Assembly (NCBI GenBank): GCA_015257795.3
Contig: CP072208.2
Coordinates: forward strand, 450,001-482,000
Length of the DNA stretch: 32,000 nt
Reading direction: 5' to 3'
DNA from: Candidatus Nanogingivalaceae bacterium
GTDB taxonomy: Bacteria > Patescibacteriota > Saccharimonadia > Saccharimonadales > Saccharimonadaceae
Shown here: positions 5,593 to 25,702 of the stretch, piece by piece
Numbering within the stretch: the first letter of the stretch is position 1
Layout: every line of letters begins with the position of its first letter
Translations under genes and position numbers: made by a program
The notes under the pieces: generated by a model
Seen by the model: the letters and a program-made list of their open reading frames with translations, nothing else
What the model was told of the DNA's origin: nothing
Database searches by the model: none

Positions 5593-8729
<3,137 letters not shown>

Positions 8730-13469: not shown

Positions 13470-13497
13470 TTGAAATACAGAAAAACTCATAAACTAA

Positions 13498-13523
13498 AAA
13501 ACCCGCTAGAGGACAGCCTGACA
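13498..13523. repeat. candidate left junction (attL-like) of the integrated element
   Basis: AAAACCCGC-TAGAGGACAG-CCTGACA. This is the mirror image of 25678-25702. Confidence 0.5.
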
Positions 13524-13558
13524 CTCAGCACTCTAAAAATAATCTGAGTTCACGCATC

Positions 13559-15037
13559 TTACAAGCACGTTAAAAGACGGTTCAAATGAACCGTCTCAGA
13601 ATGAAGACAAACATCGTTTTTGATGTTTGTCTTTTTTATATTCTTACCTAATTCTCCTATAATCCAATAATATTGAGATATTTGGGTAAAATTATAGGTC
13701 TTTCCTGTCATCATTTTTACCAATTTTTTGATATTTAGACACGCTAAAGTAAGCCCAACCTTAGCTTCCATTTTGGACTTTCCTTTTTCTCTGGTATAAC
13801 GTAAGTTATGATATTCTTTAGCTGTTCCGAATAACCGTTCTATCGTTTCTTTCCGGTGTTGATACCGTTCTTTCATACCACTTTGATGGCGAATATCTTC
13901 ACAGACTTCTAGGGCATCTTTCCAAATATGACGCACAACAACTTTTTGGTGCTGGCGACTTTCAGTACAAATCGCTAACAAGGGACAGGTCTTACAAATT
14001 TTAGGATTACTTTTATACTCTCGATAACCTTCACGTGTGGTTGTACGATAAGTTAATACATGGTTCTCTGGACAAAGATAACAATCAAAATGCTCGTCAT
14101 AGACAAAGTCTTTTGGACGTAAAAAATCTTTCTTACCTCTTGGTCTAGTGTAAGGGAAAACTGGTGTAATCCCTTTTTCTAGAAGAAACTTGGCAATACT
14201 AGGTGTTTTATAGCCTGAATCCGCAATAATGAATTCAGGTGAGAATGGTTCTAGTTTGACAAAAAGAGCAGAGAAAGCCTGACTATCATGGATGTTTCCT
14301 GCTTCAACCGTATAAGCTAAGGCCCAACCGTGTTTATCACAAGCTACTTGAGCATTGTAAGCGAAGACCTCCTTATGTTCTCCCTTATGAAACCAACCAC
14401 TGTCTGGGTCCGTCGTTGATTGTTTCTTAGGTTTAGCCTCGCTTTTTTCGGCGGGCTTTAAGAGCTTTTTTGCGTGTTTTTTCCTATCTAAATTAATCTC
14501 AATCTCCAGTTGTTCACTCATGAATTTAGCTTTTTGATCAATAACAACAGTTTTGTACTTATGATTATTAGCAGCTGCCTTGATATGGGTCCCATCAATG
14601 AAGATTTCTGAGGGATCAATGAGCCCTGCTTCCAAAACATGATGAAGCACATGACTAAAAATGTGTGCTAACACTTCCTTGTTTTCAAAGCGTCGGCTAT
14701 AGTTCTTACCGTAAGTTGTAAAATGAGGCACCTTATCGTCCAGAGATAAGCCAAGAAACCAACGGTAAGCCGTATTCACCTCAATATCTTTAATGGTTTG
14801 GCGCATAGAACGAATGCCATAAAAACATTGAATCAACGGAATTTTAACTAATAAAACAGGGTCTAGACTAGGGCGACCATTATCCGAGGAATAACTATCT
14901 TCGACAAGATCATAAATAAAAGAGAAATCAATCGTTTCCTCGACTTTTCTTAGAAAATGGTCTTTAGGCACAAGTTCATCAAGCGTATAGAATCCTACTT
15001 GACGTCGATTGTATTCAGGATTTTCTTTGTGAAACAT
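13559..15037 (-). CDS. IS1182-family DDE transposase
   Basis: 492-aa ORF. The N-terminus (YTLDELVPKDHFLRKVEETIDFSFIYDLV...GRPSLDPVLLVKI...YGIRSMRQ) and the C-terminal LFGTAKEYHNLRYTR motif are typical of IS1182/IS5-like transposases. The last codons and the stop run past the terminal IR. Confidence 0.85.
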   Translation of the reverse strand: MFHKENPEYNRRQVGFYTLDELVPKDHFLRKVEETIDFSFIYDLVEDSYSSDNGRPSLDPVLLVKIPLIQCFYGIRSMRQTIKDIEVNTAYRWFLGLSLDDKVPHFTTYGKNYSRRFENKEVLAHIFSHVLHHVLEAGLIDPSEIFIDGTHIKAAANNHKYKTVVIDQKAKFMSEQLEIEINLDRKKHAKKLLKPAEKSEAKPKKQSTTDPDSGWFHKGEHKEVFAYNAQVACDKHGWALAYTVEAGNIHDSQAFSALFVKLEPFSPEFIIADSGYKTPSIAKFLLEKGITPVFPYTRPRGKKDFLRPKDFVYDEHFDCYLCPENHVLTYRTTTREGYREYKSNPKICKTCPLLAICTESRQHQKVVVRHIWKDALEVCEDIRHQSGMKERYQHRKETIERLFGTAKEYHNLRYTREKGKSKMEAKVGLTLACLNIKKLVKMMTGKTYNFTQISQYYWIIGELGKNIKKTNIKNDVCLHSETVHLNRLLTCL

Positions 15038-15160
15038 AGGAACACCTCATCAAATACCTTTTTCTTTTATTATACTCCTTCAAAGCAAGAAAAATCCCCA
15101 GAAGTATAACTTCTGAGGACTTTGTCTTCAATCTGAGACGGTTCAAATGAACCGTCTTTT
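13572..15160 (-). mobile_element. IS1182-family insertion sequence (about 1.59 kb)
   Basis: Terminal inverted repeats of about 40 bp lie at 13572-13611 and 15121-15160. Each has an outer 22-bp palindrome AGACGGTTCAAATGAACCGTCT and an inner CAGA(A/T)TGAAGACAAA. Confidence 0.8.
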
Positions 15161-15172
15161 TCATGTATTCAA

Positions 15173-15310
15173 CTATCGTTCACTAAAGGAGATTTTAAAA
15201 TTATACATTGTACAATTAGGATTTTTACAAACTTTTATAACTTTACCACGTGCAGCATCTTCTGCATAAAACCATAAAACTTCGTTACATTTTGTGCATC
15301 TTTCAGTCAT
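15173..15310 (-). CDS. small zinc-ribbon protein (45 aa)
   Basis: Translates as MTERCTKCNEVLWFYAEDAARGKVIKVCKNPNCTMYNFKISFSER, with a CxxC...CxxxxC pattern. An AGGAGG SD lies 6 nt upstream, so this is a shorter start than in the ORF track. Confidence 0.6.
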   Translation of the reverse strand: MTERCTKCNEVLWFYAEDAARGKVIKVCKNPNCTMYNFKISFSER

Positions 15311-15320
15311 ATTTGTCCTC

Positions 15321-15431
15321 CTATAGTTTATTACCACAGTTACAACACCGTTCTGGTCGGTCGCTTGTTTTTCGCCCGCAGGTTGGGCATTCAATAGTTG
15401 CTGTAAGAATTTTTTTAACTTGTTTAATCAT
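15321..15431 (-). CDS. small zinc-ribbon protein (36 aa)
   Basis: Translates as MIKQVKKILTATIECPTCGRKTSDRPERCCNCGNKL, with a CPTC...CCNC pattern. It is below the ORF-track cutoff. Confidence 0.5.
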   Translation of the reverse strand: MIKQVKKILTATIECPTCGRKTSDRPERCCNCGNKL

Positions 15432-15436
15432 AATGA

Positions 15437-15580
15437 TTACCATCCAGATTTCTTTTGACAAGTTCCATAATTGCAGTTATGGTAAGAAAGATTGTGGTAA
15501 ATAGCTTCTTTACACCAATCACATTTATTACCGCTTAAAGCTCGTTCACAAGCACAATACCATTCATTAGGGTTTCCCAT
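15437..15580 (-). CDS. small Cys-rich protein (47 aa)
   Basis: Translates as MGNPNEWYCACERALSGNKCDWCKEAIYHNLSYHNCNYGTCQKKSGW. An AAGGAGG SD lies 7 nt upstream. It is below the ORF-track cutoff. Confidence 0.55.
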   Translation of the reverse strand: MGNPNEWYCACERALSGNKCDWCKEAIYHNLSYHNCNYGTCQKKSGW

Positions 15581-15597
15581 TACGATTCCTCCTTGTT

Positions 15598-16011
15598 TTA
15601 TATTTTAAGTCCAAAGTTTCTCGCCCATTCTTCCAAAGTTAGCCCACTCTGTGTTGATAAATCTAAAAGAGCCATTTCTATTTTCGCACGCCCCCCTTCG
15701 ACTTCCGTTTTCCATCGTAAAGCTTCCTCTAGGTTTGGTATGACCACTTCTAATCTTCTTACAAATCTTTCGGTATCTTCTTTTTCTCGAAAAAGTTGCT
15801 TGTATTCATCATGATTTGCGGAACCTAGCTTTCCTCCAATTTCATTGAGGTCAGCTAAAAGTTCATAACGGATATTTTGGGCTGTTTCTAGCACTCTTCT
15901 AGCTAGTTCTAATTTTTCGTTGTATTCCTTTGTAGCAGACTCATTTGCTTGTATTTTAAACCATAAAATTCCACCAGTAATCGCAATTACTAATAACATC
16001 AAAAAAGCCAT
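15598..16011 (-). CDS. hypothetical membrane-anchored coiled-coil protein (137 aa)
   Basis: It has an N-terminal TM helix (FLMLLVIAITGGILWF) followed by a charged helical region. An AAGGAG SD is present. It is the first gene of a tightly packed four-gene operon. Confidence 0.65.
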   Translation of the reverse strand: MAFLMLLVIAITGGILWFKIQANESATKEYNEKLELARRVLETAQNIRYELLADLNEIGGKLGSANHDEYKQLFREKEDTERFVRRLEVVIPNLEEALRWKTEVEGGRAKIEMALLDLSTQSGLTLEEWARNFGLKI

Positions 16012-16109
16012 ATTTTCTCCTTAACAAAACCTCTAAGTATTTGTAGCACATTAAAAATCGTATTTATCTTAATACGAAAAACCTCCTTTTTTTATTTTCA
16101 CTCAAAAAT

Positions 16110-16123
16110 CCCTGCTACAATAG
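16110..16123. repeat. 14-bp inverted repeat, left copy (CCCTGCTACAATAG)
   Basis: It is the perfect reverse complement of 16985-16998. The pair brackets the small serine recombinase gene. Confidence 0.9.
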
Positions 16124-16133
16124 GGGTGAGTTT

Positions 16134-16161
16134 GTTTTAGCGAACGGTCGTTTGTTAAAAC
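16134..16161. repeat. 28-bp dyad-symmetric site, left copy (GTTTTAG-CGAACGGTCGTTTG-TTAAAAC)
   Basis: It has the same outer arms as 16249-16276, but the core is in the opposite orientation. Confidence 0.85.
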
Positions 16162-16248
16162 AATCAAAGTTACCAATAAAAATATTTAAAATGCTGATTT
16201 GACAAGGTTTATAGGCTCTGTCAGGTTGGCATTTTTTGATTTTTCATT

Positions 16249-16276
16249 GTTTTAGTTGACGACCGTTTACTAAAAC
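16249..16276. repeat. 28-bp dyad-symmetric site, right copy (GTTTTAG-TTGACGACCGTTTA-CTAAAAC)
   Basis: It is the inverted partner of 16134-16161, separated from it by an 87-bp spacer. Confidence 0.85.
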
Positions 16277-16289
16277 TGTTGATAGGTTA

Positions 16290-16318
16290 AATTTACTATT
16301 TTTCTAAGGAATTGTCAA
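16290..16318 (-). promoter_or_regulatory. promoter reading through the 28-bp site pair toward the 137-aa gene
   Basis: Minus strand TTGACA, 17-nt spacer, TAAATT, directly after the recombinase stop codon. Confidence 0.45.
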
Positions 16319-16322
16319 TCAA

Positions 16323-16967
16323 TTATAGATGATTTTTTCTATTTATTTGAATACCATTGCGCTTTAGTACATTATAAATAGTTGCGGTAGAAATATTCAG
16401 CTGATTGGCTATATTTCGAACAGAATTTTCTTTTTGCTGGTATTGTGCAATAATTTGCTTTTCTTTATCTTTCGCTATTCCTTTATTACCAAGTTTCACA
16501 CCTTTTTCTTTCGCTTTACGCAGTCCGTCTTTAGTACGTTCAGAAATAGCTTGAAGCTCCCATTCTGCAACATAACCCAGCATCAAGCAAAAGAATTTCC
16601 CAGTTAAAGAATCTGTTTCAATATTTTCATGAATTGATTGAAGATGAACACCATGTTTGGTTAAATCTTCCATAATAGCAGAGAGGTGAAACATCTTTCT
16701 GGTAAGTCTATCCAATTTATATACGACAAAATTTGTTTCAACTCCTTGTTTAGCATAATTCTTGGCTAATTTTAACGCTTTGTCAAGTTGTTGTCGCTCC
16801 TGATTTCCACCTGAGTCTTTTTCAATATAAAGCTTGTCACAGAAGTTAAGAGCTTCTGTTTGAACAGATAACCCTAATTCCTGACGATTATCTGTCGAGC
16901 TAACTCGGGCGTAACCTATGGTTATGGTTTCGATGTTTTCTAATTTGTTCTTGTGATGATTTGTCAA
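16323..16967 (-). CDS. small serine recombinase (resolvase/invertase family)
   Basis: 214-aa ORF with the catalytic IGYARVSS motif, DRLTR, and a C-terminal HTH (VRNIANQLNISTATIYNVLKR). It uses a TTG start with an AGGAG SD. Confidence 0.9.
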   Translation of the reverse strand: MTNHHKNKLENIETITIGYARVSSTDNRQELGLSVQTEALNFCDKLYIEKDSGGNQERQQLDKALKLAKNYAKQGVETNFVVYKLDRLTRKMFHLSAIMEDLTKHGVHLQSIHENIETDSLTGKFFCLMLGYVAEWELQAISERTKDGLRKAKEKGVKLGNKGIAKDKEKQIIAQYQQKENSVRNIANQLNISTATIYNVLKRNGIQINRKNHL

Positions 16968-16984
16968 AATTTCTCCTTTCTTTA

Positions 16985-16998
16985 CTATTGTAGCAGGG
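16985..16998. repeat. 14-bp inverted repeat, right copy (CTATTGTAGCAGGG)
   Basis: It is the partner of 16110-16123. It lies between the recombinase SD and a TATAAT -10 hexamer (17001-17006, minus strand). Confidence 0.9.
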
Positions 16999-17025
16999 TG
17001 ATTATATCTTTAGAAGAATGTTGAA

Positions 17026-17057
17026 ATAAAAGAAAAGACCCACAATTTTTGTGAGTC
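17026..17057 (-). terminator. intrinsic terminator after the 76-aa gene
   Basis: Minus strand GACTCACAAAAATTGTGGGTC followed by TTTTCTTTTATTT. Confidence 0.65.
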
Positions 17058-17074
17058 TGAGAAGTTAGCGATTC

Positions 17075-17305
17075 CTACTTAATTAAACTTTTCTCCCAGG
17101 CGATTGCCTTTTCTTGAACTTTGAGCTCATATGAAGTTCTTTCTTCTAATTTCATATTTCTAATTTCTTCCTGAGCTTCTTGTAATAATTCCAGTTGTTT
17201 AATTGCTGGATAAAGGGCAGTTCCGATTATTCTTATTAACTCCTTGTTATCATCTAGTAATTTATTATGAGTTTGAGTAGTATTTAGGGCTTGTGTTTTA
17301 GACAT
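17075..17305 (-). CDS. hypothetical small helical protein (76 aa)
   Basis: The ORF has a GAGGA SD and starts 15 nt after the stop of the upstream gene. The sequence is coiled-coil-like, and no family was recognised. Confidence 0.6.
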   Translation of the reverse strand: MSKTQALNTTQTHNKLLDDNKELIRIIGTALYPAIKQLELLQEAQEEIRNMKLEERTSYELKVQEKAIAWEKSLIK

Positions 17306-17320
17306 GTCTATTCCTCTTTT

Positions 17321-18460
17321 CTAAAAATTATCATAAATAGTTTTCAAGAAATCAAAATCTTCATTAAGTAGATTATTGCTATGTTTAAGTGCTCGCACAC
17401 GAATATCAGTCATATTATTGCGTACAACTCTCATATTGTAACTCAGTTGTTCAATAATTACAATACTTAGTGATTTTATTGTATTTTGCATAAAGTCACT
17501 ATCCAGAAAATCTTTCTCGCCTATAAAAGTATTACTAAAATCATATTCCATGAATCCATAAAACTCCGTTTCTCTATTATTTATATTATCGCTCCCAATT
17601 CTAAAGATAATTTTTCTATGTTTATCAATCTTCAACTTTTTACTCGTTTTAGGGCTTTGAATCTCTTGGAATCGTTCATCGCTAACTTCATAACAGGTTT
17701 TATGGTTTAAGCTACTCTCAGAGAAAAATAATTCGTCATCAACAAACGATGAGTACATCTTATCTCTAGTATCAGAGGAATAAAAGTATAGACGTATATA
17801 AATTTCATCGTCTAATAATTTTTTCATTGCAAATTTAGTATCTTTCAATATATTTTTCAGAAAATTTTTCAAACCCTTGCAGTAAATTTTATCAAAAATA
17901 GTAATCATTTTAGTTGATAAAATCTTTAATAAAAACATTATACCATCTATATTCGAGGAAGCTGTTAGTTCATTGTTATTTTTTAATGCTTCCGTTGTGT
18001 TATATATTTCGTGAATAATAAGATTAGAAAACTCGTATTGATTAAAGGACTTATCCGTGTGCGTCAAATGAATTGTATTATTCTGAGTTAACCTTGAGCT
18101 ATATTGTAACAACTCCTCTAATAGTTTATTCTTTTCTTTTACCTCGTTCCACTTTTTAATAAAAGAAAAGAATTGAGCAATAACTATAGCAGTCATAAAA
18201 ATGATAGTCCATATTGCAAAAAATTCAGATACAGTTGTAGGTTGTTTGTTTGATATTTTTTCAATTTTAAATTCACTTAAATATCTAAAAAGATTCGATA
18301 CCCAGTTTAGAAAATCAGTATTATCGATGATTAAAGTAAATAATCCAGAGATAAAACCTAATAATGTTATTGCTTTGAACGATAAAAAGTAATCTACAAA
18401 ACTAAACCACTGATTTTTATCAGGAAAAAAATCTATAATAGAGTGAATCATTTTTTTCAT
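17321..18460 (-). CDS. hypothetical membrane protein (two N-terminal TM helices plus a cytoplasmic domain of about 270 aa)
   Basis: The ORF track gives 17321-18478 with a TTG start. The ATG at 18460, preceded by GGAGA, is the more likely start. The TM segments are AITLLGFISGLFTLII and FFAIWTIIFMTAIVIAQFFSFI. No family was recognised. Confidence 0.6.
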   Translation of the reverse strand: MKKMIHSIIDFFPDKNQWFSFVDYFLSFKAITLLGFISGLFTLIIDNTDFLNWVSNLFRYLSEFKIEKISNKQPTTVSEFFAIWTIIFMTAIVIAQFFSFIKKWNEVKEKNKLLEELLQYSSRLTQNNTIHLTHTDKSFNQYEFSNLIIHEIYNTTEALKNNNELTASSNIDGIMFLLKILSTKMITIFDKIYCKGLKNFLKNILKDTKFAMKKLLDDEIYIRLYFYSSDTRDKMYSSFVDDELFFSESSLNHKTCYEVSDERFQEIQSPKTSKKLKIDKHRKIIFRIGSDNINNRETEFYGFMEYDFSNTFIGEKDFLDSDFMQNTIKSLSIVIIEQLSYNMRVVRNNMTDIRVRALKHSNNLLNEDFDFLKTIYDNF

Positions 18461-18592
18461 TTTATATCTCCATTTCAAATATAAACCTAATTTCTTATCA
18501 ACTTATTCTATCATAAAAGCGCTACGGACTCATTTGAAAACACTTACATCCAATGATTTTATTGAATTTATATCTGATTTCCGAATATTTTT

Positions 18593-19690
18593 TTACATAA
18601 AATACTTCTGTTCCATCAAACAAAAGAATACCAATTCATTTTTATTCATTTTTTCACCTGAACCCACCGTAAACTCTATTTTATCTTGTTTTGCGAAAGC
18701 TCTATTTTCTAGATAATTTACAATATTTTCTGTTAAGGTTATCATATCTTTCATTTTCGAAGCGGTATAGTCATAGCTGGCTTTTATAGACAAAGCAAAA
18801 CTTTTAATCATAAAAATTTTATTAATAGCTTCTTTTGGTAAAAATCTATCCAAAGCTTTATAAAAATCTGCTTCGGATTGGCAAAATCCAGTAATTAAAG
18901 TTAATTTTGGGCTGTTCTCAAAGTTTTCTTCAATAAACTGTGTAATTCGTTCGTTGATGGTTTCGTTTTGAATTATTAAACCATTCTGGATAATTGGCAT
19001 TTTAGAAATAGAATCTTGAATCAAAACTTTTAAAGTGGGTGAAAAGAGATTTTTATTATCGTTTAACGTTTCAGGCTTATATAAATCAAAATAAAAAATC
19101 TGCTGTTTGCTTTTTAAAGATTCTTCAATAGTTTTTCTATGTGAATATGGCATTAATAAAACCTCATTCTCAAGATATTTAAAAATGTGCTGGTTAATGA
19201 TTTGCGTTTGTCTTAATTCTTCTGAGTTTTCGGAAGGAATATTCGAAAGATTTACCAAAAGAATGAAAAGGCTTGCCAAGTAAAGTTCATCTTCATGGCA
19301 ATGATTAAGTAATTCTATTTTTTCGCTACCAAAAACAACGGTAGCTTTTTGGGTTTGGTTTAAAAGAGTTGATTTGATTTTAAAAACAGCTTGCCTATAA
19401 TCAAAAGTTTCATCACGGTTTAAATCTTTCAAAACATCAGCTATCCTTTGGGATTGAAATCCTAAATCGCTAATTGGTAAAGCTTCTCGATAAAATTCTG
19501 GAACTTCTTCATCACCCGTAAAGAGGCGGTTACTGGAAACACGGTTAATTTCTGGAATAAATGAAATTTTAGGGTTGTTTTCACTCGCTAATCTATTCAA
19601 AATACTATTGACGAAATCTTCTTGGTTTCGTTTTTTCTTTTCAGATTTTTGCAAAATATAACAAAACCATCCTAATCTAAATTCGGTCAC
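18593..19690 (-). CDS. hypothetical protein (365 aa), with a possible degenerate N-terminal HTH
   Basis: It uses a GTG start with an AAGGAGA SD 6 nt upstream. No catalytic motif was recognised. The N-terminal 60 aa loosely follow an XRE-like pattern. Confidence 0.6.
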   Translation of the reverse strand: MTEFRLGWFCYILQKSEKKKRNQEDFVNSILNRLASENNPKISFIPEINRVSSNRLFTGDEEVPEFYREALPISDLGFQSQRIADVLKDLNRDETFDYRQAVFKIKSTLLNQTQKATVVFGSEKIELLNHCHEDELYLASLFILLVNLSNIPSENSEELRQTQIINQHIFKYLENEVLLMPYSHRKTIEESLKSKQQIFYFDLYKPETLNDNKNLFSPTLKVLIQDSISKMPIIQNGLIIQNETINERITQFIEENFENSPKLTLITGFCQSEADFYKALDRFLPKEAINKIFMIKSFALSIKASYDYTASKMKDMITLTENIVNYLENRAFAKQDKIEFTVGSGEKMNKNELVFFCLMEQKYFM

Positions 19691-19821
19691 ACGATTTCTC
19701 CTTGAGATTTCTGAGATTTTTTACCTGATGAATGAGATAAAAATATTCGCTACACTATAACCATAAACAAAGTCGACAATGTTTATAACATAAATTATAT
19801 CAAAATCAAAGGAGAAATCTC

Positions 19822-20082
19822 ATGAATCATATCCAAAAATCAACCCCAAAAGCAGAACTTTCTCAACTTGTTAATCCCTATCAGTTAAAAGTCGCCAAAA
19901 CTCTAAGCGAAGCGATGGCAGATAATCAAGCCTTAGAGCTTCTAGCTAACGATATTTTATATAAAGTGGGCAATTTGGCACTTACTCAGTCTGAAATACT
20001 TAAAAATACTCCTGAAGCTAAAGAGTATACAGATTATATTCTTAAAGCATTCACTTATTATGCTACTGAAAAAATGAAATGA
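19822..20082 (+). CDS. hypothetical protein (86 aa)
   Basis: The ORF has an AAGGAG SD. It is the first gene of the plus-strand transfer-side operon. Confidence 0.55.
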   Translation: MNHIQKSTPKAELSQLVNPYQLKVAKTLSEAMADNQALELLANDILYKVGNLALTQSEILKNTPEAKEYTDYILKAFTYYATEKMK

Positions 20083-20091
20083 GGTAGCTTT

Positions 20092-20295
20092 ATGATGGAT
20101 TACTTTATAGCTTTTATAGTTATCGTTATTATTACTGTATTTCTTTGGGATTGGTTCGAAAAACCAAAACAAGCAAACGAAAAACACTGTAGCGAAGAAG
20201 AAATTGCTCTGGAGGAATTTCTGGAGAAACGGCAAGAAATCAATGAACTTTTCTTGGTTGCTAAAGCAGAAATGCGAAAAATTTCAAGAAAATAA
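20092..20295 (+). CDS. hypothetical single-pass membrane protein (67 aa)
   Basis: It has an N-terminal TM helix (FIAFIVIVIITVFLW) and a charged helix. A GAGG SD is present. Confidence 0.55.
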   Translation: MMDYFIAFIVIVIITVFLWDWFEKPKQANEKHCSEEEIALEEFLEKRQEINELFLVAKAEMRKISRK

Positions 20296-20452
20296 AAGGA
20301 CTGTTTAGACTAGACAAATGGTCAAAATATGTTGAAATATACTACTGTTTCATTGTTTAAATTTCATTCCAATCGCTCTTAAAACTGAAGGTAGCTAAAT
20401 TTAACTTTTCACCAACTTTCTTGTATAAATATAGGCAGAAAGGAGACCAGCC

Positions 20453-20620
20453 ATGAAAAAACTAATAGCATATATTCTTGGATTTGTTGCTTGTGCTTGG
20501 CTTATTAACTGGGCGTTGAAACTAATTCTGGAAGTTTGGTGGTTCTTGGTTTTGATGACGGCGGTCGTTTTCATCGGCTGGCTTACCTTTCGGATTATTA
20601 AAACTAAAGATTGGAGGTAG
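20453..20620 (+). CDS. hypothetical small two-TM membrane protein (55 aa)
   Basis: Translates as MKKLIAYILGFVACAWLINWALKLILEVWWFLVLMTAVVFIGWLTFRIIKTKDWR. An AAAGGAG SD is present. Its stop abuts the next gene's start. It is below the ORF-track cutoff. Confidence 0.55.
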   Translation: MKKLIAYILGFVACAWLINWALKLILEVWWFLVLMTAVVFIGWLTFRIIKTKDWR

Positions 20621-20622
20621 AG

Positions 20623-22842
20623 ATGAAAAGAAAATTTGAAACACTATCTTGGAGTGAACTCAACTGGATGCGCCCGTTTAAAATAGATGATGTGAAATCT
20701 ATGCTGGGTCAACTGGTGGGGTTAACTCGGCGTAAAGCGGTTATTTTTGAAATTCGATTATCTAAGAATCGCGTACGCTATCTATTAGGAACAGAAGAAC
20801 AAGATAAGCGACATATCAGCCAACTAATTCAATCACACCGAGCTATTCAGTTTTCAAGAGCTCCTAAACGCGAAAAACTTTCGGTTGCACGGTTAGTGAA
20901 CATCAAAGAATCTCACTATGCTTTAAAAACGGACTCTGTAGAAAACATGATACGTTCAAGCCTTGCAATTTCAAAAATACTTCAGCCAGATGAAACAGTA
21001 GTTGTTCAGTTGGTCATTGGTGCAGGCTCACCACCTCGGCCGCAGCCAAAAGATTTGCCGAATTTATCCGTTAAATGGTATCAAGTGATTACAAATAATA
21101 TTCCTGAGCTTTCCGAAAACTCCAAAAAGCTGATGAAACAAAAATTAAACCAATCTACTTTTAAGTGTGAAATTCGTCTTGGTGTCCAATCTCGCAGTAT
21201 TTTACGAACAAAAGAATTTTTTGATAGCTTGTTAAGTAGTTTTCGCATGATGGAATCAAATGCAACCATTGAATTAAAACCATTTGCTATCCAAAAACTA
21301 AATCAAGCACAACCTTCTTGGGCTTATCCCTATAGTTTGGGAATTTCAGACCTTGCTTGTTTTCTACTTCTACCAATTGGTGAAGAAAATATTGCAGGCG
21401 TGCCAAATGTTCACCCTAAATTAGTGACTCCGCCTTTGGGCTACAATATTAACCGAAAAAATCAGCGAAGTTTGGCGCAAACGGTTGAAAATCAATCAAG
21501 ACCAATTCAAATTTCAGCACAAGCTGGCAAAAAGCACACCGTTTTTCTCGGCTCAACAGGTTGCGGGAAAACTACTGCCATGAGTCACTTGATTTTATCA
21601 GATATAAAATCTAAACATCATAGTGTAGTTGTGGTGGATGCCAAAGGTCAACTTACTCATGAACTTTTAGAGCGCACACCAACTGAACACGATGAAGATA
21701 CAGTAGTCATTTCACCAACCACCAAACGAGTTGTTGGCATCAATCCTTTTGAACTCACCAAATATGGTATTGAACCCGAAGTTATCGCAGATTATCTACT
21801 GGAGCTATTTAAAGGGCTTTATCCTGAACATTTTGGAATTTACTCGCTGGACATTTTGTCACACAGTTTTCTAACGCTTGCTAGAATTCCAAATACCTCT
21901 TTAGTGATGTTACCAAGTTTGCTCACTAATAAGTCCTTTCGAAATAAACTATTAAGAGAGTTAAAAGACCCAATTGGACTGGAGAGCTTCTGGAACTGGT
22001 TTGAGCTACTCAGTGAAGCCCAACGTCACCAGATATTAAACCCCATTTTGAATAAATTCCGACAGTTTTTGCTTCGTCCGCAACTTCGGGCAATGTTGGG
22101 ACAAACTAATCCAAATTTCAGTCTTGCAGAAATCTTCAAAAGCCGAAAAATCGTATTGATTCCACTAAATAAATCGGTAATCGGTTCAGAATCTGCGAAA
22201 CTCATTGGTAGCCTCATCACTTCAATGCTCTGGATGTTAATTTTGCGCCAGTCGTCAGTTGAGCCAAGCAAACGCCAATCGGTCTTTATCTATATTGATG
22301 AAACACCAAGTTTCCTAGGAATCCCCAATTCTAACTTAGATGAAGCACTTTCACAATCTCGCCAATTTAATGTTGGCTGGAATATCGGCTTCCAGCATCT
22401 TGCACAGATGTCACCTCAGTTAAAAGCTGGTATTGAATCTAATGTTGCGAATAAAATTGTTTTTGGCTTAAATCTTGATGAAGCTCGCGAAATGGCAAAA
22501 TATACTCTGGAGATTGATAAAGAAGATTTTTACAGTTTACCACCATTTTGGGCATATATTCGTACTGAAATTTCACAAAATACTTATCAATGGATTATTG
22601 GTAAAGCCTACCCACCTAAACCAAAAATTAGAGATAGTCGCACGCCATTTTTGAATAGCTTGAGCCGATACGGACAAGATATTTCAGAAATTGAAAGCCA
22701 ATTTGAAAACTACATTTTTGAAAAATCTGCTTCAAAAAATGAAGATTCTAATCAAAAATTAACAGATTTAGGGAGGAAAAAGCGTTCCAATCGCTCTTCG
22801 AATCGTGTTGATGAAGAAAAATCTTCCACCCCTGACAAATAA
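20623..22842 (+). CDS. P-loop DNA-transfer coupling ATPase (TraD/VirD4/TcpA-like, FtsK-HerA superfamily)
   Basis: It has Walker A GSTGCGKT, Walker B VFIYIDETPSF, and a following GFQHLAQM motif. The ATG at 20623, preceded by GGAGG, is preferred over the TTG at 20611. Confidence 0.6.
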   Translation: MKRKFETLSWSELNWMRPFKIDDVKSMLGQLVGLTRRKAVIFEIRLSKNRVRYLLGTEEQDKRHISQLIQSHRAIQFSRAPKREKLSVARLVNIKESHYALKTDSVENMIRSSLAISKILQPDETVVVQLVIGAGSPPRPQPKDLPNLSVKWYQVITNNIPELSENSKKLMKQKLNQSTFKCEIRLGVQSRSILRTKEFFDSLLSSFRMMESNATIELKPFAIQKLNQAQPSWAYPYSLGISDLACFLLLPIGEENIAGVPNVHPKLVTPPLGYNINRKNQRSLAQTVENQSRPIQISAQAGKKHTVFLGSTGCGKTTAMSHLILSDIKSKHHSVVVVDAKGQLTHELLERTPTEHDEDTVVISPTTKRVVGINPFELTKYGIEPEVIADYLLELFKGLYPEHFGIYSLDILSHSFLTLARIPNTSLVMLPSLLTNKSFRNKLLRELKDPIGLESFWNWFELLSEAQRHQILNPILNKFRQFLLRPQLRAMLGQTNPNFSLAEIFKSRKIVLIPLNKSVIGSESAKLIGSLITSMLWMLILRQSSVEPSKRQSVFIYIDETPSFLGIPNSNLDEALSQSRQFNVGWNIGFQHLAQMSPQLKAGIESNVANKIVFGLNLDEAREMAKYTLEIDKEDFYSLPPFWAYIRTEISQNTYQWIIGKAYPPKPKIRDSRTPFLNSLSRYGQDISEIESQFENYIFEKSASKNEDSNQKLTDLGRKKRSNRSSNRVDEEKSSTPDK

Positions 22843-22935
22843 AGGTTTTCAGGATTTTTACTCACACGACTTACTCCGTAACTAAGCACATTTTACAGGA
22901 GCACACCCTTTAAATTTTAATGGAGAACAAAACAG

Positions 22936-23739
22936 ATGAAATGGAATTACAAAATAGATAACAACACGCAAATTCTTTACTTTTTGAGTCAAGCAAGATT
23001 TGCTACCACTAACCAATTAGCCAGACTCTTTTTCGCGGATAGCGCTCGATTTGAGACTACTATTCGCCGCACTAATTTTGCACTGCAAAGCCTGAAGAAA
23101 GCTGGATTGGTTTCACATTTAAAACGACGAGTTGGTGGCGCACGCCGTGGCTCCGCTTCTTATGTTTGGCAAATTACTTTTCAAGGACTAAAATTTCTTA
23201 AAAACCAAGATGAAACAGTTGTTTTGCGTTATAAAAATAAATACGAACCAACCCAGCACCACGTTGAACACACTTTGGGGATTACGGAAATTTTTGTTGA
23301 GACACTGGAGACCGTTCGAGATTCAGAAAAACTGTCGCTTGAAACTTTTTCCTTTGAGCCAAACTCTTGGCGCAGCTACCAAAAACTTTCTGGTGTTGGA
23401 ATGACCCTAAAACCAGATGCTTATTTGGAACTGATTAATCACGATTATGAAGACCATTATTTTCTGGAAATAGACCGAAGCACGGAAAGTCTTGTACGTA
23501 TCCTAAATACTTGTAAGAAATATATTGAATATTATCGGTCAGGTATTGAACAACGACAAAAGGAAGTTTTCCCCTATGTTTTGTGGGTTGTGCCAGACGA
23601 CAAGCGAAAGCTGGCGATTTCGAAAGTGATTCAAAAAGAACTATACAATTTTTGGGAATTATTCACCGTGATTACTTTGGACGAATATTCAGATTATATC
23701 AAAGGAGGTATTTCGAATGAACCAGAAGAATCAAGATAG
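22936..23739 (+). CDS. replication-relaxation (Replic_Relax, PF13814-like) family protein
   Basis: It has an N-terminal wHTH-like region (ILYFLSQARFATTNQLARLFF), a HHVEHTLG motif, and KPDAY...YFLEIDRSTES (PD-ExD/K-like). It is adjacent to the coupling ATPase, as is usual for this family. The assignment is from memory. Confidence 0.6.
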   Translation: MKWNYKIDNNTQILYFLSQARFATTNQLARLFFADSARFETTIRRTNFALQSLKKAGLVSHLKRRVGGARRGSASYVWQITFQGLKFLKNQDETVVLRYKNKYEPTQHHVEHTLGITEIFVETLETVRDSEKLSLETFSFEPNSWRSYQKLSGVGMTLKPDAYLELINHDYEDHYFLEIDRSTESLVRILNTCKKYIEYYRSGIEQRQKEVFPYVLWVVPDDKRKLAISKVIQKELYNFWELFTVITLDEYSDYIKGGISNEPEESR

Positions 23740-23884
23740 AGACTCAAAACAGGCTTCACACACCGCCGATGAAATTTGTCGAATTGGTCGAACGACTTAC
23801 TTAATCCGTCACCGTTTTACTGGAAATCGCAATCTTGAAAATGTCCTAGAAAGGTTGATTTTAAGCGATAAATCACTACTTTAA
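23717..23884 (+). CDS. TnpW-like small protein (55 aa)
   Basis: Translates as MNQKNQDRDSKQASHTADEICRIGRTTYLIRHRFTGNRNLENVLERLILSDKSLL. The IGxTTYxVxxxF...LExxLxRLI pattern recalls TnpW peptides that sit next to large serine recombinases. An AAAGGAGG SD is present, and it overlaps the previous gene's end. Confidence 0.5.
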   Translation: MNQKNQDRDSKQASHTADEICRIGRTTYLIRHRFTGNRNLENVLERLILSDKSLL

Positions 23885-23896
23885 CAGTAGTAAAAA

Positions 23897-23905
23897 TGGT
23901 ATAAT
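23897..23905 (+). promoter_or_regulatory. extended -10 element upstream of the large serine recombinase
   Basis: TGgTATAAT. No good -35 was seen. Confidence 0.35.
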
Positions 23906-23945
23906 AGAGGTATAAGGTGTGTGAACTCCAAAAGGAGAAAAACAC

Positions 23946-25649
23946 ATGAACAGAACTTTGACAATTTCAGATTATAGACAAGTAGATACTTCAAAACTTT
24001 CAGATATTACGGTAGTTTATTGTCGCTTAAGTCAAGACGATGGTCTGGACGGAGACAGTAACTCGATTACCAATCAGAAGAAAATTCTGCTTGATGTAGT
24101 TACAAGAGAAAATCTCCCCAATCCTATTTTGTTTGTTGACGATGGCTTTAGTGGCACAAATTTTGACCGTCCAGCTATTTCGGAAGCACTTAGACTAGTG
24201 GAAAATCGACAAGTTTCAAACTTTATCGTTAAGGATTTGAGCCGTTTAGGGCGGTCTTATATCAAGGTTGGTCAACTAACGGAAATTACTTTTCCGAGCT
24301 TTGATGTTCGCTTTATCGCCTTAAATGATGGCGTAGATTCGAATAAACCTAATGAAACTAATTCAATTTTCTTGCCAATCAAGAGTCTAATGGATGAAAT
24401 GTATGCGGCAGATACCAGCAAGAAGATTCGGGCGGTGGTTCAAGCTAAAGCCAAAGCTGGCGAGCGTGTAACTACTAACCCACCTTACGGCTATCTCAAA
24501 GATTCAAACAACCCTAAAAATTGGATTGTTGACCCAGTTGCCAGCGAAGTTGTGAAACGGATTTTTCAAGAAGCGAAAAGCGGAAAAAGCCTTTCGGAGA
24601 TTGCTAAAGGGTTAGAAAATGACAAAATTTTTAAACCAGACCGCCACCGAATAGAAATCGGTTTGAAGTCTATTTCTTCCAGCCCAAATGTGGAAACTTT
24701 GCCTTATTTTTGGACGCGAGAAACCCTAAGCGCTATCTTAGGGCGTGAAGAGTATCTTGGGCATACTGTCAATCTTCGAACTCGCACGAAATCTTATAAA
24801 GATAAACGTAAAGTAGATAACCCAAAAGAAAATTGGCTGATTTTCAAAAATACTCATGAAGCAATTATCGACCAAGAAACTTTTGATATTGTTCGAAAAA
24901 TCCGAAATCATAAGCGGTCTAATCAACGGTATAAAAATCGGACTGGTCACGAGAATTTGTTTGCGGGATTGGTTTTTTGCGGAACTTGTGGGCGAAAGCA
25001 TTATTTTTGCCCACAAGAGAAAAATGGACTCAACCACGACCATTACAAGTGTTCTGGCTACCGTAAGCCGATTGATGGTTGTGAAAATCCCCACTATATT
25101 CAAAAATCTGCCTTGATTGAGATTGTGAGTGGTAAGCTCCGCCAAACTATTCAGGAAATCCACTTCGACCAAGAAGCCTTTTTGAAAAAGTTAGAACAGC
25201 AAAGCCAAGCTCAATTCAGCAAAAATAATAAACGCCAGCGCCAGCAACTCCAAAAGGATGAACACCGCTCTAAAGATATTGACAGCATCATTCAGAAGCT
25301 TTATGAAGATAATCTACTTGGAAAAATTTCAGATGAACGCTTTGTGAAGCTAAGTCAGAGCTATGAAGAAGAACAGAAACAACTTCAAACTTCCATTTCT
25401 GATTTAACTGAAAAACTCGCCAAACAACAAGAAGATAGCTTGAATATCTCCAAGTTTATGGCGAGAATTTCAAAATATACAGAGCTTCCAAAATTAACCG
25501 TTGAAATAGTGAATGAACTGATTGACAAGATTGTTATTCAGAAACCAACTGGCACGAAACGCAATCGAATTATTCAGGTTGACATTTACTACAATTTCAT
25601 CGGAAAATTAAATAATGAAAAAAGCGAGCCAAACAACTGGGCTCGCTAA
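23946..25649 (+). CDS. large serine recombinase (TnpX/TndX/phage-integrase type)
   Basis: 567-aa ORF with the catalytic VVYCRLSQDDG...SNSITNQK motif, DLSRLGR, a recombinase domain, a Cys-rich zinc ribbon (CGTCGRKHYFC...YKCSGY...C) and a C-terminal coiled coil. Confidence 0.92.
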   Translation: MNRTLTISDYRQVDTSKLSDITVVYCRLSQDDGLDGDSNSITNQKKILLDVVTRENLPNPILFVDDGFSGTNFDRPAISEALRLVENRQVSNFIVKDLSRLGRSYIKVGQLTEITFPSFDVRFIALNDGVDSNKPNETNSIFLPIKSLMDEMYAADTSKKIRAVVQAKAKAGERVTTNPPYGYLKDSNNPKNWIVDPVASEVVKRIFQEAKSGKSLSEIAKGLENDKIFKPDRHRIEIGLKSISSSPNVETLPYFWTRETLSAILGREEYLGHTVNLRTRTKSYKDKRKVDNPKENWLIFKNTHEAIIDQETFDIVRKIRNHKRSNQRYKNRTGHENLFAGLVFCGTCGRKHYFCPQEKNGLNHDHYKCSGYRKPIDGCENPHYIQKSALIEIVSGKLRQTIQEIHFDQEAFLKKLEQQSQAQFSKNNKRQRQQLQKDEHRSKDIDSIIQKLYEDNLLGKISDERFVKLSQSYEEEQKQLQTSISDLTEKLAKQQEDSLNISKFMARISKYTELPKLTVEIVNELIDKIVIQKPTGTKRNRIIQVDIYYNFIGKLNNEKSEPNNWAR

Positions 25650-25677
25650 TATTAACCCATTTAACTAAACTGCTATA

Positions 25678-25702
25678 TGTCAGGTCAGCTGATGCGGGTT
25701 TT
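25678..25702. repeat. candidate right junction (attR-like) of the integrated element
   Basis: TGTCAGG-TCAGCTGAT-GCGGGTTTT. This is the mirror image of 13498-13523. Confidence 0.5.

Follow-up and report, generated by a model that had tools for sequence, protein, structure and literature searches.

A probable streptococcal integrative mobilizable element at a predicted terminator loop in the clade-G6 Saccharibacterium JB003

What is the block of about 12 kb of mobile-element genes that interrupts a row of housekeeping genes in the window analysed here (the whole stretch of 32,000 nucleotides, from the clade-G6 Saccharibacterium JB003), how did it insert there and where did it come from? We are largely confident that it is a streptococcal integrative mobilizable element (IME), inserted at the loop of a terminator by its own TndX-like large serine recombinase (LSR), and that its entry into Saccharibacteria from oral streptococci has been very recent and repeated. 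A streptococcal-type element in the JB003 genome is already published, and what we present is a refinement and not a discovery. JB003 (CP076102) is a nanopore-completed clade-G6 Saccharibacteria genome obtained from saliva, and the element present in JB001 and JB003 was described as a "putative prophage" of ~10 kb with ~95% homology to S. salivarius, Streptococcus being proposed as a possible G6 host (Baker 2021, PMC8386444). The remark of the first-pass annotation of this DNA that such elements are rarely described in the candidate phyla radiation (CPR) must be qualified by this earlier record. Our additions are the att sites, the terminator-loop target rule, the classification as IME, the anatomy of a nested insertion sequence (IS), an inversion switch, a second G6 site, a S. 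salivarius copy with zero substitutions and the multiple acquisitions.

The genes found outside the junctions code for enolase, DnaE, a 5S-23S-tRNA-tRNA-16S operon, LysRS, a protein of 100 amino acids (aa), a glgP-like phosphorylase, S16 and RimK; domain and gene assignments bear out the initial impression that everything outside is housekeeping and everything inside belongs to mobile elements. At the left junction AAAACCCGC (13498-13506) is followed by TAGAGGACAG and then by CCTGACA (13517-13523), and at the right junction TGTCAGG (25678-25684) is followed by TCAGCTGAT and then by GCGGGTTTT (25694-25702), all of them at the positions first given. An empty version of this site, AAAAAACCCGC-TAGAT-GCGGGTTTT, was found in nine related metagenome contigs (L002-L010, which are the matches listed and encode an identical glgP protein; 11 further similar places exist beyond these). 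In these contigs glgP is followed directly by the 100-aa open reading frame (ORF) and then by lysS, the intergenic sequence reads ...AAACTAAAAAACCCGCTAGATGCGGGTTTTAAACTATT... and the outer arms are joined as one hairpin, ...AAAAAACCCGCTAGATGCGGGTTTT.... The occupied left side reads CCCGCTA-GA-GGACAG..., the occupied right side ...GTCAGCT-GA-TGCGGG and the empty site CCCGCTA-GA-TGCGGG, a comparison that places the crossover at the GA of the loop (13509-10 and 25691-92). The empty site has a single copy of this GA, the occupied site one at either end of the insert. With one of these two copies included, the insert extends over 13511-25692 (12,182 bp) and is made up of a 10,621-bp IME, a 1,539-bp IS and a 22-bp duplication. 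The range of 13498-25702 proposed at first had located the element correctly but took in the host stem arms, and the crossover, put then at the boundary between the 9-mer and the 10-mer, has to be moved to the loop.

The hairpin of the empty site has a 9-bp stem, the 5-nt loop TAGAT and a T-run, was scored as terminator-like and folds with -14.2 kcal/mol (z = -5.2) and -13.1 kcal/mol (z = -4.2) on the two strands. It lies between the convergent 100-aa ORF and glgP, with stop codons at 39 and 24 nt. The empty site of JB003 is thus, by prediction, a bidirectional intrinsic terminator, and since the target is a loop between two convergent genes no gene was disrupted. Two proposals of the first-pass annotation, that the outer arms would rebuild a stem-loop between convergent genes and that attB is a terminator loop, are in agreement with these data. 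Its third proposal, that the junctions are attL and attR of an LSR whose gene ends close to the right junction (the stop codon is at 25649), gains support from the single GA of the empty site against one GA at each end of the insert, and from the position of the 7-mers. Counted from the core, both arms of the element have CCTGACA at +7..+13 and AGCA at +17..+20, and ends mirrored in register like this have the form expected of the half-sites of an LSR attP. The joints deduced from the ends are ...CTATATGTCAGGTCAGCT-GA-GGACAGCCTGACACTCAGC... for attP and ...AAAAAACCCGCTA-GA-TGCGGGTTTT... for attB. The mirror symmetry alone is not beyond chance (eight nested inverted arrangements of a 9-mer and a 7-mer in the window versus 5.1 on average in random sequences from a first-order Markov model, with loose spacing allowed) and was for that reason dropped as evidence; it is the comparison with the empty-site contigs that validates the junctions.

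The same element was also found elsewhere. An identical LSR protein is encoded in further contigs, with the same ends and the same GA at four further locations. One site is shared by L011 and L016 (AACCGCCGT-GA...GA-AGCGATTATTTTT) and another by L013, L014 and L015 (AAAAAACTCACCT-GA...GA-GGGTGGGTTTTTG); for L017 and L018 only the right side is available, with GA in the former and GA-TGGCTACCATTTTTTT in the latter. This makes at least five distinct sites for the same element, or for the same LSR gene plus right end, each of them with GA at the junction; two are in G6 Saccharibacteria, with a matching empty site for each, and one is in S. salivarius. The second G6 site, that of L011, is located between the genes of a M16 peptidase and xseA and is empty in eight further contigs. 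Four of them (L100, L102, L106 and L107) have exactly ...AATAACCGCCGT-GA-AGCGATTATT... (...CCGCCGT-GA-AGCGATT...), three have AA for GA and one keeps GA but differs in the right arm, where AACG stands for AGCG. The complete GA-type attB sites, three in all, fold like terminators with GA in the loop (z from -4.5 to -5.2, better strand). The contigs with AA in the loop of the empty xseA/M16 site (L101, L104 and L105, CCGTAAAGCG) should therefore be immune to the GA-core element there. As a separate observation, L013 has amino-acid ABC-transporter permease genes on both sides of the IME (L013:1-1125 and L013:13799-14925) that are 99.7% identical across 1,125 bp, and the second copy ends in an intact and slightly different terminator (CACCTGCAGGTGGG versus the reconstructed CACCTGAGGGTGGG); this repetition of the flanks reflects either an operon duplicated in tandem or an assembly that passed through variants of different strains.

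To describe the target of the whole family, distinct flanks, 39 on the right and 17 on the left, were extracted through the conserved ends from all loci. The dinucleotide was the same at both ends in 14 of the 15 two-ended elements and varied between elements (GA, AA, CT and TT, with AT, CA and TA also among the right flanks), even among LSRs ~93% identical. This matching of the core at both ends indicates that each variant is limited to terminators with its own core in the loop. The half-site profiles were symmetric: A or T at +1, G as the commonest base at each position from +2 to +6 (33-61%) and T at 69-100% in +9..+12 and 71-88% in +13. The core was in or at a hairpin loop in 12 of 15 reconstructed attB sites, and a stop codon was found 6-41 nt from the core in 10 of 14. 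Taken together, the counts of cores, half-sites, folds and stop codons point to a family attB with the generic shape of an intrinsic terminator plus an upstream A-tract, with the crossover in the loop. We favour that the enzyme reads the ordinary double-stranded half-sites of a degenerate palindrome, rather than an extruded structure. Among the papers searchable, none was found linking an LSR to terminator hairpins as attB. Terminator loops are a generic, harmless and phylum-independent address, and targeting them may explain how the element became established in a 0.69-Mb genome without breaking genes. A locus in a S. mitis metagenome-assembled genome (L025:106-11747) carries different dinucleotides at its two ends, AA on the left and CA on the right, and its flanks form no hairpin; integration with mismatched cores could account for this, as could a composite or tandem arrangement, and the locus was not used as support.

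What kind of element is inserted at these loops can be told from its right half, where a coupling protein, a relaxase and a serine integrase follow each other in compact order, all on the + strand (Table 1). The relaxase is annotated as the exact same protein in S. salivarius. The coupling protein is of VirD4 type and not of TcpA type, with a match to FtsK_SpoIIIE of just 15.9 bits, under the cutoff. The LSR aligns with annotated TndX over residues 22-553 (94% of its length) at 38.5% identity (E = 7e-101), and DUF4368, which it carries, is a hallmark of the multi-targeting, TndX-like clade of LSRs (PMC10083194). No VirB4-, VirB6- or VirB8-like match of a type IV secretion system (T4SS) was obtained for any ORF of the element in Pfam, PHROGs or NCBIfam, no capsid, portal, terminase, tail or lysis gene was found with Pfam and PHROGs, and megablast gave no match among 50,697 phage records. 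With neither a T4SS nor a phage structural gene, the element is classed as an IME and not as an integrative and conjugative element (ICE) or a prophage. Its predicted gene content makes it a member of the streptococcal IME_Class_8 / IME_PF13814 family. The IME_Class_8 module (PMC5357655), equivalent to the IME_PF13814 superfamily (PMC7563491), combines a serine integrase, a Rel_PF13814/MobC relaxase and VirD4. Twelve such serine-integrase IMEs have been described in S. salivarius, all of them intergenic, with the target merely suggested to be transcription signals, "promoters or terminators" (Lao 2020, PMC7563491).

The cargo and small ORFs of 365, 379, 137, 76 and 73 aa gave no match in Pfam, PADLOC, PHROGs or NCBIfam, and neither did the 47-aa and 45-aa ORFs of the small-ORF operon. 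The two largest cargo ORFs (379 and 365 aa) have homologues solely in streptococci (S. suis, 48-78%) and in oral metagenomes; their AlphaFold (AF2) models, built from shallow alignments, were poor, with pLDDT (predicted local distance difference test) values of 56 and 47. The cargo ORFs occupy a variable region, in which relatives carry other genes.

The hosts were assigned from the flanks by exact-sequence match: the proteins of the window are those of Candidatus Nanogingivalaceae bacterium, the SerRS next to the element in L011 belongs to the same lineage, and the MurA and EndA that flank it in L013 to Streptococcus salivarius. Between L011 (G6) and L014 (S. salivarius) there are 0 substitutions in the 10,621 bp of the IS-free IME, the only difference being the orientation of a 125-bp segment. 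The window copy differs from L011 by one substitution (at 19152) and by the IS. The identity of the S. salivarius copies is apparently 99.4-99.5%, but in L014 all the differences from L011 behind this figure fall within the inverted segment; L013 has a further 4 substitutions and 2 small indel events relative to L011, at element position ~7750-7835. As judged by this comparison, the base-identical copy in S. salivarius shows very recent gene traffic between two phyla.

A scan for LSR homologues with one genome per species gave proteins at 84-96% identity in S. mitis, S. oralis, S. cristatus, S. infantis, S. suis, S. minor and S. moroccensis, and in the Saccharibacterial contigs L023, L058, L059 and L060; the next tier, at 36-41% identity, came mostly from Clostridia. 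The proteins encoded in the flanks are Saccharibacterial in L058 and L059 and, in L023, cluster with G6-sized contigs. When the LSR genes were arranged in a neighbour-joining tree, three Saccharibacterial lineages were placed separately among the streptococci: that of JB003 and L011 does not differ from the S. salivarius copy, L023 is nearest to S. oralis (93.7%) and L058 to S. moroccensis (89.7%). From this placement we infer that the family is streptococcal and that it has entered Saccharibacteria at least three times. An acquisition from another lineage had been suspected in the first-pass annotation, and the near-identical copies, the LSR relatives and the LSR tree identify the source as Streptococcus.

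In the mechanism that we propose, a dimer of the LSR would read a loose palindromic attB consisting of an A-tract, a C-rich arm, an NN core, a G-rich arm and a T-tract at +9..+13. It would cut at the central dinucleotide and exchange strands with a circular attP whose half-sites carry CCTGACA at +7..+13, a matching core at a terminator loop leading to integration. TndX alone integrates and excises Tn5397, with a GA core (PMC4430133), and by analogy the present LSR would probably also excise the element as a circle. For transfer, the MobC relaxase and the VirD4-type coupling protein would make use of a T4SS supplied in trans, either by a streptococcal ICE or, speculatively, by the conjugation-like T4SS that has been reported in Patescibacteria (PMC12857230). 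The IS would have landed in an internal hairpin of the window copy, before or after entry into Saccharibacteria.

The main alternative concerns this transfer step: the same element could have entered by natural transformation with free streptococcal DNA instead of by conjugative mobilization, and would then have no bearing on any physical partnership. We consider this unlikely, yet a real contender, given that natural competence, by way of type IV pili and ComEC, is a trait of Saccharibacteria (PMC12857230), that S. salivarius is abundant in saliva and that the IME encodes no T4SS. On the other hand, integration by an LSR needs a double-stranded circular attP and an expressed recombinase, and uptake delivers single-stranded fragments, here without flanking homology; furthermore, the element keeps a complete relaxase and coupling-protein module, and the fact that one small clade made such acquisitions independently no fewer than three times suggests a regular route.

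An extension of the mobilization route is that the IME takes part in active contact-dependent traffic between oral streptococci, S. salivarius included, and G6 through an ICE pore or the Patescibacteria T4SS, being a footprint of an epibiont-host partnership. We put this forward tentatively, as possible though doubtful. If true, the partnership of G6 with streptococci would lie outside the Actinobacteria, which to our knowledge host all cultured Saccharibacteria; we know of no G6 Saccharibacterium in culture, nor of an established host for this clade. The zero-substitution copy, the two polymorphic G6 sites and the acquisitions, three at the least, turn the suggestion of Streptococcus as G6 host into a sharply testable hypothesis.

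The direction of the traffic could also be the opposite, with a family native to Saccharibacteria that spread to streptococci, for which the several distinct variants found in Saccharibacterial contigs might speak. This is improbable: relatives occur in many species of Streptococcus, animal ones among them (S. suis, S. minor and S. moroccensis), with LSRs down to 84% identity, each Saccharibacterial variant is nested beside a streptococcal one, the homologues of the cargo and the relatives of the IS are streptococcal, and the family was itself defined in streptococci.

Three other explanations have very little in their favour. JB003 was assembled from saliva metagenome reads and an identical element is found in co-resident S. 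salivarius, so that a streptococcal element misjoined into a Saccharibacterial genome by assembly or binning could be imagined, but such an artefact is scarcely credible when the flanks complement each other as the two halves of a single hairpin, found intact in at least nine other contigs, the breakpoints are precise with a duplication of a single GA, an independent assembly from another study has the same element at another G6 locus with a known empty site, and further variants are found in two Saccharibacterial contigs of considerable length, L023 (63 kb) and L058 (163 kb). A prophage, whole or as a remnant, which is how Baker 2021 labelled the element ("~10-kbp putative prophage element") and which is in line with PHROG families matching the recombinases, the ATPase and the relaxase, is very hard to maintain, as these matches are to integrase, invertase, nicking-initiator and ATPase families, the terminase match covers only the P-loop, virion, packaging and lysis genes are lacking, as is any match in the phage records, and the gene set equals the published IME_Class_8 module. 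That the 214-aa small serine recombinase or the IS transposase (in a composite transposon), and not the LSR, carried out the integration might be thought from the description of the element as "flanked by PinE invertase homologs" (Baker) and from an IS near the left end, and is most improbable: otherwise identical copies have the same ends without the IS, of which there is only one; the small recombinase adjoins its own hix-like repeats, around a segment found in both orientations, and its region is missing in several relatives with the same right end, which the LSR gene always adjoins.

Several points nevertheless weigh against a streptococcal IME moved and integrated by its own machinery. 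The activity of the recombinase, the excision and the transfer are predictions from sequence, as is the terminator function of the hairpins, and what we call the attB "motif" summarizes base composition across relatives whose LSRs are 84-100% identical. The Saccharibacterial settings of the element, that of JB003 included, come from metagenome assemblies and not from isolates, and the element has no recognizable T4SS of its own. Finally, the circular attP junction, for which the first-pass annotation had recommended a search, gave 0 matches in the JGI metagenome contigs and IMG/VR, both as an exact 28-mer and as a family-degenerate 35-mer (the empty site, also recommended for search, is the one present in relatives as given above). 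Because junctions of this type seldom survive assembly, this null result carries no information and is not to be read as negative.

Compared with known systems, the element has the same compact module and the same intergenic insertion as IME_Class_8 / IME_PF13814, with a copy in S. salivarius that is identical in sequence save for the flipped 125-bp segment, but here the host is a Saccharibacterium (Patescibacteria) and the target is narrowed down to a terminator-hairpin loop with a 2-bp core. It resembles TndX of Tn5397 and TnpX of Tn4451 in the full-length homology to TndX, the GA crossover and the many target sites. It differs from them in that the identity is only ~38%, the LSR is located on a small IME instead of on a Tn916-like conjugative transposon, close relatives of the LSR use AA, CT, TT, AT, CA and TA cores, and the target is a terminator-shaped palindrome, not the Fic-domain coding site of TndX. 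With the multi-targeting DUF4368 LSRs (PMC10083194; Cp36 for example) it shares several attB sites per LSR, a degenerate motif flanked by T/A and a fixed core. Like the ICEs TnGBS1 and TnGBS2, it lands harmlessly at an intergenic transcription signal of a generic and ubiquitous kind, an analogy already drawn for such IMEs by Lao 2020 (PMC7563491); however, TnGBS1 and TnGBS2 insert upstream of sigma-A promoters by means of a DDE transposase, an unrelated enzyme with unrelated chemistry. If the LSR and an attP of ~60 bp work in both Bacillota and Patescibacteria, they would be a candidate tool for integration at terminator loops in CPR bacteria.

Table 1 Features of the insert and its junctions, in window coordinates
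Feature	Position	Strand	Basis
attL host half: A-run, CCCGC stem arm and TA, then GA (13509-13510)	13496-13510		Exact match to left half of the empty site in L002-L005
IME left end, putative attP P' arm: GGACAGCCTGACACTCAGCACTCTAAAAA; CCTGACA at +7..+13, AGCA at +17..+20	13511-13540		Identical at other insertion sites; mirrors right end in register
Whole insert, 12,182 bp	13511-25692		Empty sites; IS-free copies L011, L013, L014
Left copy of 22-bp target duplication, AGACGGTTCAAATGAACCGTCT	13575-13596		Single copy in IS-free L011
IS1182-family IS, 1,539 bp, inverted repeats CAGAATGAAGACAAAC / CAGATTGAAGACAAAG	13597-15135	-	NCBIfam transpos_IS1182, 442 bits (cutoff 270); Pfam DUF772, DDE_Tnp_1
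Right copy of 22-bp target duplication	15136-15157		Alignment with IS-free copy
Small-ORF operon: 137 aa (15598-16011), 47 aa (15437-15580), 45/73 aa (15173-15394)	15173-16011	-	Gene calls
Predicted DNA-inversion switch: hix-like inverted repeats 16134-16168 and 16242-16276; invertible 125-bp segment 16143-16267	16134-16276		Repeat search and copy comparison
Small serine recombinase, Pin/Hin invertase type, 214 aa	16323-16967	-	Pfam Resolvase 3.3e-32 plus helix-turn-helix; phrog_125 DNA invertase 2e-46
AT-rich variable cargo, 26-29% GC: 76 aa, 379 aa (17321-18460, membrane-like N-terminus), 365 aa (18593-19690)	17075-19690	-	Composition
Three small conserved backbone ORFs (86, 67, 55 aa), upstream of coupling protein	19822-20620	+	Gene calls; conserved in streptococcal relatives
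VirD4-type coupling protein, 739 aa, Walker A GSTGCGKT	20623-22842	+	Pfam TrwB_AAD_bind, 51.9 bits (cutoff 20.5); weak NCBIfam VirD4-like and TraD matches
MobC-family (Replic_Relax, PF13814) putative relaxase, 267 aa	22936-23739	+	Pfam 1.2e-38, 133.6 bits (cutoff 25.3)
55-aa ORF between relaxase and LSR	23717-23884		
LSR, 567 aa, TndX-like	23946-25649	+	Pfam Resolvase, Recombinase, Zn_ribbon_recom and DUF4368, all above cutoff
IME right end, putative attP P arm: ...CTGCTATATGTCAGGTCAGCT; TGTCAGG at -13..-7	25661-25690		Sequence; other sites
attR: GA (25691-25692), then host half T, GCGGG stem arm and T-run	25691-25702		Matches right half of the empty site

The IS nested in the window copy is absent from L011, L013 and L014. 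It was among the features highlighted in the first-pass annotation, but it lies at least 64 bp inside the left end, counted from the core, leaves the att arms intact and has no relation to the att site. Its assignment to the IS1182 family agrees with a transposase above the NCBIfam equivalog cutoff and with terminal inverted repeats, which match in 14 of 16 nt. Long target duplications are usual in this family; here the 22-bp duplication spans a whole palindromic hairpin within the IME, terminator-like and folding with -16.5 kcal/mol (z = -5.9), and the transposase ORF has no stop inside the IS. This ORF (15037->13559, - strand) takes its last ~12 codons from the duplicated hairpin and from IME DNA. 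The exact transposase is on record at this one locus only, and its 90% cluster holds streptococcal proteins. A 40-nt "IS inverted repeat" given by the repeat search was rejected, being mostly the palindromic 22-bp target duplication; the true ends are 13597 and 15135.

The 16134-16276 region and the 214-aa invertase together are, to judge from their sequences, a DNA inversion switch of the Hin/Gin/Pin type. Reverse-complementing exactly the 125-bp segment of L014 gives the sequence of L011 and of the window, and both orientations of the segment were found among 26 loci: the first in the window, L011, L020 and L031, the second in L013, L014 and ~20 streptococcal loci. The segment lies between the invertase gene and the small-ORF operon (137, 47 and 73 aa). 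No convincing promoter was found within the invertible segment; a TTGACA-17-TAAATT site is present at 16318-16290 (- strand), directed into it.

Outside the element, the match to the 23S rRNA gene (5593-8714) is 3,122 nt long versus a model of 2,925 nt, an excess that indicates ~200 extra bases within the gene. Insertions in rRNA have been reported in CPR bacteria, and these bases may be a further case. A patch of low G+C content (36-39%) is found near 8-9.5 kb, over the 5' end of the 23S gene and the spacer.

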